A DNA stretch of 64,000 nucleotides from Salinivirgaceae bacterium. GTDB taxonomy: Bacteria; Bacteroidota; Bacteroidia; Bacteroidales; SZUA-534. Location: contig JAKSOL010000007.1 of assembly GCA_024405635.1 (NCBI GenBank), positions 63,981 through 127,980 of the forward strand, written 5' to 3'. The translations under genes were made by a program, and so were the position numbers. The notes under the pieces are model-generated. The model saw only the letters and a program-made list of their open reading frames with translations. It searched no databases and was not told the origin of the DNA. Below, one piece after another: positions 23,638 through 24,819 of the stretch (position 1 is the stretch's first letter; each line of letters begins with the position of its first letter).

Positions 23638-23958
23638 TTAAAAAAAATCAATCAAATCGGGCTTTTTTAGCAAAATCTCGTCATTTTTTCGTTTCTGTTT
23701 TCGTCCAAAATAATGGTAAGAAGCTTCGTTGTGTTTGTCATCTACCACTACTACACTTATTTGGCATTTGCCGCAAATAGCTTCCATTATTCGCTTTTTA
23801 TGAACTAATGCGTTGGCCATAGAGTAACAATACCGTATATATAGATTGGAGTATAACTTATTGAATCCGTCCTTCTCTAGTTGACGCGAAAAATTCTTTT
23901 TACATTCCTTGCCTGTTGATGTGCGGTTGGAAATGTTCATAAAAACGTAAATCCACAT
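23638..23958 (-). CDS. cas2: CRISPR-associated Cas2, type II-like but divergent
   Basis: MWIYVF..., L.KDGF, Y.R.C.S..NA.VH.KR, C-terminal L.DFF; directly downstream of cas1. Confidence 0.88.
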   Translation of the reverse strand: MWIYVFMNISNRTSTGKECKKNFSRQLEKDGFNKLYSNLYIRYCYSMANALVHKKRIMEAICGKCQISVVVVDDKHNEASYHYFGRKQKRKNDEILLKKPDLIDFF

Positions 23959-23961
23959 AAC

Positions 23962-24819
23962 TTAAAACAATGAAGGGTAATATATTACACGTCGCTCACC
24001 TAAGTAAATCTGCGATAGCGAATAAGTTGTTTGTGACACATCGTCGGGTTTTATTGACTCGTAGAATAGCTCCAAAATGGCTTTTTTGAAGTTGTGGTCA
24101 ATGCATCTTTGGCCGATGGTGTATAGTTCAAGCACTTTTTCGTCAACAAATGGTCGATATGGTTCCATAACATCGTCGCTCAACGGAAAGGAGTTGTATC
24201 GGTTTTTATGAAAAACACCAATCATTGGCAATAAACCTGAATTCATTAGCGCACGCGATACTACCGACCGCAAAATGGCATATCCGTAGTTTAGCATATC
24301 GTTGGGACAATTGCCGTAACGGTCGCGTATAAAATCTTTGCCTAGCAAAAGTTTCCAATATGTTGCGGCTGCCAAAGCCTCGCGATTTGTTGTGTCGCCA
24401 CTTTTAACATTCTTATGGTACTTGCTCAACACATCTTCTCCCTTGCCCAATTTTTGTAGCAATAGCGACTGGTTGTGTATCTTATGTTCTATTATCTGTT
24501 TCCAGATTTGTTTTCTAACGGGTTCTGTTGTCGCTAACTGCGCGTTAAAGGTCATTGTTTGCCGTACGTTTGACTCTAAGTCTAAAGTCATGCTTACGGG
24601 CATGTGGCGCTCGTCGCAAAAAACTATGCTTATGTTGTTTTGAGACAACTTGTTAAGCAGTGGCACAGTGATGCGTACCGAATGGTTATCGACTAAAATA
24701 CCCGACACGTCCTCTAACGAACGCATGATTGGGTCTTTATCTTCTTGACAAATTAAAAGCTGCCCATCTTTCAACGATAGATCGGCTTTGTTTTCAAATA
24801 CAAGTGTTTGTTTTGGCAT
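23962..24819 (-). CDS. cas1: CRISPR-associated integrase Cas1, type II-like
   Basis: VKSGD..NREA, N.MLNYGYAILRS, G..H.N.YN.F.L.DD.MEPYRP.VD; catalytic E/H/E residues present. Confidence 0.96.
   Translation of the reverse strand: MPKQTLVFENKADLSLKDGQLLICQEDKDPIMRSLEDVSGILVDNHSVRITVPLLNKLSQNNISIVFCDERHMPVSMTLDLESNVRQTMTFNAQLATTEPVRKQIWKQIIEHKIHNQSLLLQKLGKGEDVLSKYHKNVKSGDTTNREALAAATYWKLLLGKDFIRDRYGNCPNDMLNYGYAILRSVVSRALMNSGLLPMIGVFHKNRYNSFPLSDDVMEPYRPFVDEKVLELYTIGQRCIDHNFKKAILELFYESIKPDDVSQTTYSLSQIYLGERRVIYYPSLF

Follow-up and report, generated by a model that had tools for sequence, protein, structure and literature searches.

How does a CRISPR adaptation module of type II ancestry come to stand beside an array whose spacers are hundreds to thousands of nucleotides long? 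The question arises from a window of 64,000 nt, the whole stretch of DNA analysed here, from a Salinivirgaceae bacterium (contig JAKSOL010000007.1). Within it, cas1 (positions 23962-24819, minus strand, 285 aa) is followed by cas2 (23638-23958, minus strand, 106 aa), whose ATG lies 3 nt downstream of the cas1 stop. cas2 adjoins both cas1 and the repeat array, the latter across a short leader; in the sequence, 50 nt (23588-23637, minus strand) separate repeat 1 from the end of cas2. This spacing is 48-52 nt in related loci. The account we favour, with a probability of about 50% for the whole of it, is that Bacteroidales type II-C gave rise to an offshoot without Cas9, whose adaptation module survives intact in this cas1-cas2 pair.

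The window array comprises eight minus-strand repeats and seven spacers of 412-2350 nt. Leader-proximal repeat 1 (23553-23587) is 35 nt long with 7-nt inverted ends and borders spacer 1 (21203-23552, 2350 nt), which holds parts of three phage-like genes; the last of these ORFs, an ATPase, is truncated by a repeat and matches phrog_6891 at profile positions 13-159 of 310. After repeat 2 (21168-21202), spacer 2 (20009-21167, 1159 nt) carries an ORF that matches phrog_23416 at profile positions 270-391 of 459 and has its 5' end cut by a repeat. Repeats 3 (19974-20008), 4 (19149-19183), 5 (18702-18736) and 6 (18215-18249) separate spacer 3 (19184-19973, 790 nt), spacer 4 (18737-19148, 412 nt), spacer 5 (18250-18701, 452 nt) and spacer 6 (17761-18214, 454 nt). 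Repeat 7 (17726-17760) has 2 mismatches, spacer 7 (15852-17725, 1874 nt) contains a complete AAA_14/DUF4143 ATPase gene at 16160-17506, and the degenerate repeat 8 (15817-15851, 4 mismatches) closes the array at its trailer end. ORFs are thus cut at repeat borders, and related pieces have been captured twice, in both orientations, as in the inverted overlap between spacers 2 and 5 (76% identity over 469 nt).

Long spacers recur across related loci. The 66 spacers of 13 clade arrays measure 29, 30, 30 and 130 nt and then 206-2350 nt (median 481 nt), and none of the 66 falls between 31 and 129 nt. The three spacers of 29-30 nt adjoin the same type of Cas2 (loci L039 and L035). Nine metagenome loci contributed 40 further start-to-start spacings (227-3002 nt), and at least one spacer of at least 130 nt is present in 21 of the 22 loci that have two or more repeats. 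In these genomes, the period of canonical arrays is 65-78 nt. An assembly artefact was rejected on three counts: independent assemblies yield the same layout in 22 loci, the MAGs concerned contain normally assembled canonical 66-nt arrays, and repeat-flanked spacers also appear in independent sequencing runs.

A source locus was found for one of the seven window spacers. Spacer 4, flanked by perfect repeats, is identical (100%) to a distant locus of its own genome (G000:C14:45931-46342), which corresponds to the 5' end of a gene for a 757-aa secreted protein next to relaxase-like and HNH-like genes. Contigs from sequencing runs X2, X3 and X8 hold the same sequence in its C14 context, ending exactly at the spacer borders. 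When the arrays of L036 and L042 were compared with their own genomes, no clear source locus emerged; the comparison brought to light internal duplicates and one more array (G039:C159). The phage collection gave no nucleotide match to the window array, tblastn with the cut ATPase ORF returned only three weak protein matches, and two scans of the spacer ORFs against viral_contigs gave none. The spacers share a rule at their ends: A stands at position 4 from each end in 37 of 51 and 35 of 51 cases, respectively, against a background of 0.32. The rule was not found in 92 canonical spacers from four arrays.

The sequencing runs yielded further observations on this locus. Run X2 covers the cas genes and the older spacers but leaves 20056-23400, which lies in the two leader-proximal spacers, without cover. 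As the gap is bridged by no contig, it is no evidence of a strain without those spacers. Joints at 17760/22095 and 21570/22149, with sides no longer than 24-29 letters, were taken as artefacts of repeats or of other organisms. Contigs from RNA libraries X8 and X11 lie on cas1, which is no demonstration of transcription.

The window locus belongs to a Cas9-less clade of 26 loci from gut and rumen Bacteroidales with a conserved consensus of its own. Its Cas1 scores 284.5 bits against TIGR03639 (cas1_NMENI; cut-off 120) and falls in a clade of four (SH-aLRT 99) on a long stem nested inside Bacteroidales type II-C Cas1, with which it shares 35-47% identity. Within the clade, pairwise identities are 49-57% for Cas1 and 30-61% for Cas2; judged from its sequences, the clade is old and has a single origin. 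The window's own genome, which is 99.78% complete, has no match to the Cas9 profile TIGR01865, and tblastn with a sibling Cas9 found no match in any of the 26 clade loci; the same query hit five canonical loci. No regular CRISPR-like array was found elsewhere in the own genome. A second locus in this genome consists only of a 3' remnant of cas2, the leader and one repeat.

The first-pass annotation had proposed that Cas2 has lost its canonical motifs, and comparison with 13 canonical Cas2 proteins from genomes of the same family, each adjoining a cas9-type cas1, bears this out. In the alignment, the motifs D-L-P-T, [MF]QFS.Y, TDKQ and a terminal QLELF are each present in 13 of 13 canonical sequences, and the window Cas2 has in those columns Asn for Asp, KLYSNLY, DDKH and LIDFF. 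The replacement of TDKQ by DDKH is correct for the window and does not extend to the clade as a trait, being specific to this lineage; most clade members keep DKQ. Even the Asp column is not fixed: clade members have N, G, D, S, Q or T there. The best-conserved part of clade Cas2 is the putative Cas1-binding tail motif, which reads IEFF or IDFF against the canonical LELF, with F105 invariant and E104 nearly so. Two further differences had not been pointed out before: the window Cas2 has five extra basic residues in the linker that precedes this tail, where all 13 canonical sequences show a five-column gap, and it lacks the N-terminal extension of 9-18 residues found in canonical Cas2.

Despite this divergence, homology to Cas2 is clear. 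At E up to 0.01 the window protein has no match in Pfam, and it reaches 17.3 bits against TIGR01573, below the cut-off of 24.5; nevertheless, BLASTP connects it to a neighbouring canonical Cas2 at E = 8e-18, it is 25-32% identical to Bacteroidales type II-C Cas2, and a clade Cas2 profile matches solved Cas2 at E = 2e-7. A HMMER scan with Cas2 gave 98 matches, the nearest of which form a clade of their own, and a word-index protein search gave a single match, the orthologue in G028. The AF2 model (pLDDT 83.8, about 90 in the core) has a ferredoxin fold (strands 2-8, 33-36, 39-43 and 66-72; helices 14-29 and 47-60). Its best Foldseek matches are Cas2 structures (TM 0.7-0.85), including type II-A integrase complexes, and of the 24 matches at E up to 0.001, those listed are Cas2 chains or Cas2-type proteins. 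A VapXD protein was matched at E = 0.011. The conserved dimer-strand region and the hydrophobic-Glu-hydrophobic-Phe tail are retained. The protein is a divergent, probably non-catalytic Cas2, which would serve as a scaffold.

Cas1 has kept its catalytic motifs, as the first-pass annotation stated: NREA, GVFHKN and DDVMEPYRP are all present, and columns N145, E147, H204, D215, D216 and E219 are invariant in 19 of 19 aligned rows. The further suggestion that its C-terminal region is shortened depends on the reference, as 285 aa is short beside type II-C relatives (294-316 aa) but not beside solved type II-A proteins (288-302 aa). The difference from type II-C is an eight-residue gap before the S.TT.SL..GE..YP end, seen in 4 of 4 clade Cas1 sequences and in none of 15 canonical ones, and in the AF2 model (pLDDT 86.8) it falls where a loop joins helix 242-254 to helix 258-272. 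Gln4, where canonical Cas1 has Arg or Lys, shows the same distribution (4 of 4 versus 0 of 15).

These clade-specific changes, namely the five added Cas2 linker residues, the eight-residue Cas1 deletion and the Cas1 substitution at position 4, cluster at the Cas1-Cas2 junction. In S. pyogenes, according to PMC12216489, Cas1 residues 234-260 and loop 6 of Cas2 face each other and Cas1 R5 is essential; window Gln4 aligns with this R5 in an alignment to the solved Cas1. By homology, the changes at the window junction match the facing regions that PMC12216489 describes. Complex prediction lends weak support to a pairing of Cas1 with Cas2, with a score of 0.55 against 0.10 for the best of three controls, although complexes of this kind are already solved and the pass may be memory. 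The passing mark admits 58 of 80 solved complexes along with 2 of 110 mismatched pairs, and passing scores of 0.60 or below, the range in which this pair falls, came from only 7 of the 80 solved complexes and from both of the passing mismatches. The runs shared at least 86% of contacts, with a partner pLDDT of at least 79.

Is the module still maintained? Both genes are intact in only 4 of the 26 loci (the window, L033, L036 and L076). In G028, the nearest genome, cas1 is broken by a frameshift and a CAG-to-TAG stop. It is also broken in L071 and L073 and absent from at least 4.9 kb upstream in 16 loci, and two further loci end at contig ends. In loci without cas1, cas2 has lost its start codon, carries premature stops or frameshifts, or is truncated. 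One cas1-less lineage (L035, L072, L074 and L075) has lost the cas2 ATG and gives dN/dS values of 0.2-0.7 from few changes; its arrays differ at their leader ends and have their trailer end in common, so that array turnover there either needs no cas1 in cis or reflects recombination. Remnants of cas2 together with the leader are duplicated within the arrays of L042, L073 and L078. These remnants, the leader-end differences, the second locus of the window's genome and the damage to or loss of cas1 or cas2 in 22 of 26 loci would fit a history in which the module became useless after Cas9 was lost, the motifs eroded by drift and the arrays survive as fossils that recombination between repeats, and not Cas1-Cas2, has enlarged or reshuffled.

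Simple decay of cas2, which the first-pass annotation had named as an outcome that would undo its own proposal, does not describe the window lineage. dN/dS is 0.08-0.11 for cas2 and 0.076 for the 3' part of cas1 between the window and G028, and 0.13 for cas2 between L033 and L034. From these substitution rates, cas2 in the window lineage is under purifying selection and not simply decaying; for a history of decay, selection of this strength on both genes is hard to accommodate. Drift would not yield an old clade with conserved motifs of its own, nor does it agree with an intact Cas2 fold and intact Cas1 catalytic residues. Nor would recombination between repeats by itself give rise to an exact copy of a distant locus, or to unrelated foreign and own fragments whose ends follow a symmetric rule. 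We regard decay as an improbable explanation of the window.

The persistence of full-length cas2 frames without cas1 in L034, L035, L039 and L077, together with a kinship to VapD-type proteins to which the VapXD match points, raises another idea, that Cas2 has been recruited to a role other than integration, such as that of a regulator or toxin-like RNA binder, and is kept independently of Cas1. Under such a role, cas2 would not be expected to degrade where cas1 has gone, nor would the putative Cas1-binding tail be its best-conserved part and the catalytic Asp a position that is not conserved; we judge it highly improbable. Cooperation in trans of the divergent Cas2 with a canonical Cas1 in the cas1-less genomes was also rejected as the main reading, as cas2 has there lost its start or gained stops.

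In the account that we favour, that of a maintained adaptation module, the pair is a candidate enzyme that may be active. It would insert DNA at the leader-proximal repeat and duplicate that repeat, as in CRISPR adaptation, and the inserted pieces would be copies, 0.13-2.4 kb long, of mobile-element DNA or of the cell's own DNA. The primary cause of the lost length control would be the loss of Cas9, with which the trimming of prespacers and the one-sided choice of a PAM would have disappeared. S. pyogenes offers a precedent, since its Cas1-Cas2 alone integrates unprocessed substrates, whose trimming to about 30 bp is the work of a supercomplex with Cas9 (PMC8034620); this result, as reported there, concerns unprocessed substrates and does not extend to kilobase DNA with a canonical pair. 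Both surfaces of the junction appear to have changed together, with five basic residues added to the Cas2 linker ('loop 6') and, in Cas1, Arg/Lys4 replaced by Gln in strand 1 and eight residues removed from the loop between the last helices. We infer that this remodelled junction and the lost catalytic loop of Cas2 are co-adaptations, through which the two Cas1 sites could hold both ends of a long, looped fragment. A middle that loops out would explain the absence of spacers of 31-129 nt.

The causal order may also be the reverse, in an extension of what the first-pass annotation proposed: the altered Cas2 surface and linker and the shortened Cas1 would be the primary cause, through the geometry or flexibility of a (Cas1)4(Cas2)2 assembly, and the loss of Cas9 would be incidental. 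Part of this proposal stands, in that the changes are clade-wide, co-occur with long spacers and lie at the junction, at positions that correspond to the facing regions given for S. pyogenes in PMC12216489. Their conservation within the clade speaks for it, and the gap in spacer length fits two modes of integration, one with about 30 bp held straight and one with a loop of sufficient length to bend. That canonical arrays lack the symmetric end rule would point to changed substrate handling by the integrase itself. What weakens it is that Cas9 is missing from all 26 loci, so that the proposal is confounded; because the clade arose once, its co-occurring traits count as a single event, and comparison cannot tell the effect of the protein changes from that of Cas9 loss. 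Moreover, the canonical S. pyogenes pair already inserts unprocessed substrates in vitro (PMC8034620), and the 29-30-nt spacers in L039 and L035 are in part the ordinary spacers beside the same substitutions that the first-pass annotation had named as evidence against itself. As for the Asp-to-Asn change, Cas2 catalysis is dispensable for acquisition according to PMC6182153, the column varies within the clade, and loss of this residue cannot be the cause. Junction changes as the primary cause strike us as unlikely; loss of Cas9 first, with co-adaptation of the junction, is the order that we prefer.

The nearest known systems are the Bacteroidales type II-C loci (cas9-cas1-cas2, with repeats of 36 or 47 nt and spacers of about 30 nt), which coexist with clade loci in some genomes. 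Besides the kinship of Cas1, the window clade shares with them the order of cas1, cas2, short leader and array, a repeat of 35-36 nt and a degenerate trailer repeat. It differs in having no cas9, in spacers of 130-2350 nt, in a Cas2 without the four invariant motifs and a Cas1 with Gln4 and the eight-residue deletion, and in a symmetric end rule instead of a one-sided PAM. Casposases are likewise Cas1-family integrases that insert kilobase DNA with duplication of the target site. Casposons are bounded by terminal inverted repeats and encode a polymerase B, and they have neither Cas2 nor a repeat array. In contrast, score and tree both assign the window Cas1 to CRISPR type II, where it nests in type II-C, no large polymerase ORF was found in the locus, and the inserted pieces are unrelated, having in common at their ends only one A/T position. 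Integrons (IntI with attC cassettes) also gather foreign DNA in an array at one fixed site beside an enzyme gene. The window pieces, however, are not cassettes but fragments with borders inside genes, and the repeat is identical in every copy apart from repeats 7 and 8. The ORFs of 16-26 kb showed no tyrosine recombinase, and none of the 10 locus proteins scanned matched an integrase family in Pfam.

Type II-A modules (S. pyogenes, E. faecalis and S. thermophilus; 5xvn, 6qxt and 8pk1) share the Cas2 fold (TM 0.7-0.74), and residues 4-231 of the window Cas1 align with their Cas1 at E = 2e-36. The C-terminal tail of their Cas2 is the Cas1-binding element, as described in PMC6182153. They work with Cas9 and Csn2 and have 30-bp spacers, whereas the window pair lacks an effector, its Cas2 has a longer, basic linker and no catalytic Asp, and its Cas1 has Gln at the essential R5 position. 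In the literature searched, which mostly excluded subscription journals, we found no account of natural spacers of hundreds of bases to kilobases or of a Cas9-less clade of type II Cas1-Cas2.

Taken jointly, these results are compatible with a tentative and somewhat doubtful picture, in which a natural Cas1-Cas2 derived from type II inserts pieces of 0.13 to more than 2 kb at one fixed site without Cas9. The ends would be held in the canonical 4-nt-overhang geometry (T fourth from each 3' end), the middle would loop out, the remodelled junction would permit the loop, and the stored pieces would serve defence or memory without a CRISPR effector.

The measuring of spacers by Cas1-Cas2 is usually studied by mutating model enzymes, and here nature supplies a matched pair: type II-C modules with 30-nt spacers and, in some cases within one genome, a sister clade whose arrays hold kilobase pieces. 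The candidate differences are few (no Cas9, five more residues in the Cas2 linker, a lost Cas2 catalytic loop, Arg/Lys4 to Gln in Cas1 and eight residues fewer in Cas1), and with so short a list the question of what limits spacer length can be tested directly by swaps. If the pair does insert kilobase DNA into a defined site independently of homology, it would also be of interest to the search for DNA-writing tools. If the protein changes are secondary to the loss of Cas9, the clade would still show how a type II integrase behaves in cells that lack its trimmer.

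The window cas1 gene (23,962–24,819, minus strand; 285 aa) was assigned to type II by TIGR03639 (284.5 bits versus a cut-off of 120). After a 3-nt gap comes cas2 (23,638–23,958, minus strand; 106 aa), and a repeat array starts 50 nt beyond the cas2 stop codon. The array contains eight 35-nt repeats, six of them identical and the two most distant from cas2 carrying 2 and 4 mismatches, and its spacers measure 2,350, 1,159, 790, 412, 452, 454 and 1,874 nt. Housekeeping genes, including a Vut_1 transporter gene, and other ORFs lie upstream of cas1. No other Cas1 is present in the window's own genome (G000; 99.78% complete, 36 contigs), and a search of that genome found neither a Cas9 match nor a regular CRISPR array. 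A second repeat site occurs at the start of another of its contigs (L007, C8:1–2,180), where two AT-rich ORFs, possibly GNAT-type acetyltransferases as read from their translations, precede a single repeat (646–680, 1 mismatch), beyond which come a leader-like stretch and a cas2 3' remnant of ~80 nt. Two studies each contributed a metatranscriptome library (public runs X8 and X11) with contigs on cas1, at positions 23,961–24,177 and 24,623–24,809, and one metatranscriptome contig on this gene has a 1-nt deletion at 24,082.

The window Cas2 has no Pfam match and scores 17.3 bits against TIGR01573, under the cut-off of 24.5. Run in full against 1.84 billion representative sequences, HMMER nevertheless returned 98 matches at E ≤ 0.001 (18 at E ≤ 1e-10), the nearest of which carry the window's features together with a consensus of their own: an MW start, a variable loop at the former DLPT site, a basic linker, an IEFF end and the conserved motifs KDGF, NLY.RYC, NA..HK.R and DKQ.E.SYHY.GR. 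The AlphaFold2 model built on the alignment of this clade has a Cas2 fold (mean pLDDT of 83.8; core ~90; tail, residue 80 onward, ~60), and Foldseek ranked solved Cas2 chains top (TM 0.7–0.85), including some from type II-A integrase complexes. The clade comprises 26 loci: 13 from a scan of 185,579 species genomes, 11 from metagenome contigs, the window and the nearest other genome (G028). Where titles exist for the 24 loci from the two scans, they name Bacteroidales or Paludibacteraceae MAGs from animal guts and rumen. Using tblastn against locus DNA, we found Cas9 in none of the 26 loci, while the same query matched it in five canonical type II-C loci. The four intact clade Cas1 proteins form one group (SH-aLRT of 99) on a long stem nested within Bacteroidales type II-C Cas1, according to a quick tree of 19 rows in which the midpoint root serves for drawing only.

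The window and G028 Cas2 proteins are 92% identical, with dN of 0.03, dS of 0.31–0.45 and a ratio of 0.08–0.11, and dN/dS over the 3' 191 codons of cas1 is 0.076. These low values indicate strong purifying selection on both genes in the window lineage, contrary to the possibility, raised in the first-pass annotation, that cas2 is simply decaying. The window Cas2 is a member of a conserved clade and not a wreck.

We aligned Cas1 and Cas2 proteins from a further 16 genomes within the window's own bacterial family. All 13 canonical Cas2 proteins have D-L-P-T after strand 1, [MF]QFS.Y, TDKQ and a QLELF end, whereas the window Cas2 and its orthologue in G028 depart from them at all four places, bearing out the motif losses first read from the window alone; the DDKH variant, though present, is confined to this lineage, and most relatives keep DKQ. 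The basic stretch before the window Cas2 tail includes five residues absent from all 13 canonical proteins, each of which has an N-terminal extension of 9–18 residues that the window is unable to encode. In Cas1, the catalytic columns do not vary across the 19 aligned rows, and the first-pass annotation had noted that the catalytic motifs are kept. The apparent partial loss it had noted before the terminal SL...GE...YP corresponds to an 8-residue gap just ahead of the S.TT.SL..GE..YP end (4/4 clade versus 0/15 canonical proteins), and position 4 is Gln in 4/4 clade proteins and Arg or Lys in 15/15 canonical ones. At 285 aa, the protein is shortened relative to type II-C relatives (294–316 aa), but not relative to solved type II-A Cas1 (288–302 aa).

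According to PMC6182153, two Cas1 dimers are bridged by one Cas2 dimer, and residues 92–113 of the type II-A Cas2 C-terminal tail form the Cas1-binding part. For S. pyogenes, PMC12216489 places Cas1 residues 234–260 opposite Cas2 loop 6 (residues 90–102, the linker to the tail strand) and describes R5, on Cas1 strand 1, as essential and modelled to bond to the same loop. Window Cas1 Gln4 aligns to R5, in a register that pairs window T5 with T8 of the 4zkj chain. The 5-residue clade insertion sits in the Cas2 linker, and the 8-residue Cas1 deletion maps to the loop joining the final two model helices (242–254 and 258–272), at about the end of the 234–260 region. Mapped by homology, the three clade-specific changes would therefore converge on one Cas1–Cas2 junction. 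Co-folding of the window pair gave weak support (score of 0.55, compared to 0.10 for the best of three controls; ≥86% contact agreement between runs; partner pLDDT ≥79): 58 of 80 solved complexes reached the pass mark, as did 2 of 110 mismatched pairs, scores ≤0.60 include only 7 of the 80 and both passing mismatches, and the pass may reflect memory, since like complexes have already been solved.

Long spacers recur across the clade, and the first repeat begins 48–52 nt beyond the cas2 stop in every locus. The 66 spacers measured in 13 arrays (window, L030 of G028 and L034–L044) were 29, 30, 30, 130 and then 206–2,350 nt (median of 481), and a further 40 start-to-start spacings in nine metagenome loci spanned 227–3,002 nt. 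Of the 22 loci that have two or more repeats, 21 contain a spacer of ≥130 nt, the exception being L039, in which the contig ends after two spacers (30 and 29 nt). Ordinary cas9-cas1-cas2 loci with 65- to 78-nt periods coexist in some clade genomes, so long spacing is not a genome-wide or assembly property. No spacer of 31–129 nt was found among the 66, a gap that would fit either a straight ~30-bp substrate or a loop of sufficient length to bend.

The first-pass annotation had proposed that the altered Cas2 and shortened Cas1 loosened the spacer ruler. This explanation is partly supported: the pair is remodelled and selected, and its changes lie where Cas1–Cas2 geometry would be set. The lost Cas2 Asp, however, is irrelevant to it, because Cas2 catalysis appears dispensable: PMC6182153 describes no nuclease activity for S. 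pyogenes Cas2 and reports that E. coli active-site mutants still support acquisition. Spacers of 29–30 nt beside window-type Cas2, leader-proximal in L039 and L035, also count against the proposal; all three are in loci without cas1 and in genomes with canonical systems. Moreover, Cas9 is missing from every locus with window-type Cas2 and the clade has a single origin, which makes the two traits inseparable by comparison. Loss of trimming by Cas9 explains the lost ruler no less well. S. pyogenes Cas1–Cas2 by itself carries out full-site integration of unprocessed substrates that differ in length, and ~30-bp products arise only from the supercomplex with Cas9, via its HNH site (PMC8034620); Cas9 is reported to be essential for S. 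thermophilus adaptation (PMC4335292). Its loss alone could therefore free spacer length.

Long-spacer ends follow a common rule in 12 arrays (window, L030, L034–L038 and L040–L044). The fourth position inward is A at 37/51 and 35/51 ends, compared to a background of 0.32 (binomial p = 2e-9 and 2e-7, both overstated because 15 of the 51 come from L042 and related arrays lack independence), and 57% and 53% have A at the fifth. Four canonical type II-C arrays (92 spacers) do not follow this rule. Two-fold symmetry of this kind would be expected from an integrase that is itself symmetric, and not if Cas9 chose PAMs on one side. Type II-A prespacers have 4-nt 3' overhangs, a geometry that would presumably place the position-4 base at the fork.

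ORFs of the window spacers extend into the repeats and are cut at that border. Two of them have matches to phage protein families that cover only the profile part left by the border, positions 13–159 of 310 (phrog_6891) and 270–391 of 459 (phrog_23416). Spacer 5 resembles part of spacer 2 in inverted orientation (76% identity over 469 nt), with comparable double captures in L035, L036, L037 and L042. The spacer at 18,737–19,148 is 100% identical over its full 412 nt to C14:45,931–46,342 of the same genome, the 5' end of a gene for a 757-aa secreted protein. Contigs from three public runs hold this piece in its C14 context and leave the array sequence exactly at the spacer borders; at least one spacer was thus copied from elsewhere in the same cell, between two perfect repeats. 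Neighbouring genes, relaxase-like and HNH-like as named from their translations, suggest that the source is probably an integrated mobilizable element. The self-match would carry no autoimmunity cost because Cas9 is absent. At C33:64,197–64,408, an intergenic segment that separates an rnf-like operon from the gene after it resembles two window spacers (17,761–18,214, 85% over 115 nt; 21,203–23,552, 93% over 42 nt) and may be what is left of a similar mobile element. Counting the degenerate eighth repeat (15,817–15,851), the oldest 'spacer' holds a complete AAA_14/DUF4143 ATPase gene (16,160–17,506), on which X8 RNA-library contigs lie at a word depth of 19–33, which is not proof of transcription.

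Both genes are intact only in the window, L033, L036 and L076 (4 of 26 loci). The G028 cas1 (L030 on contig C22, positions 1–701) is frameshifted and interrupted at codon 94 by a CAG-to-TAG stop, beside an intact cas2, and the dN/dS of 0.076 over its remainder indicates recent damage or an assembly error. Elsewhere, cas1 is broken in L071 and L073, reduced to a remnant in L037 and not found within at least 4.9 kb upstream in 16 loci, while two further loci end at contig ends; cas2 is apparently intact in 9 loci, damaged in 8 (lost ATG, stops, frameshift or N-terminal loss) and a 3' remnant in 9. Four loci without cas1 and with the cas2 ATG lost (L035, L072, L074 and L075) share the trailer part of their arrays at 95–99% identity and differ in the leader-proximal part, the pattern of leader-end gain, though without cas1 in cis. 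Recombination with arrays of other strains, gain before cas1 was lost, or a helper in trans could each account for this. Remnants of the cas2 3' end with leader also lie within or between arrays (L042, 13,398–13,478; L073, 11,253–11,333; L078, 11,805–11,885), with the same recurrence at upstream repeats in L044 (6,182–8,516), indicating tandem duplication of a remnant–leader–array unit.

No system of this kind was described in the literature searched, which lay mostly outside subscription journals. The first-pass observation is thus confirmed and extended, and its interpretation is partly supported: we read the window pair as an integrase module, remodelled and under selection, of a CRISPR offshoot that has long spacers and no Cas9.
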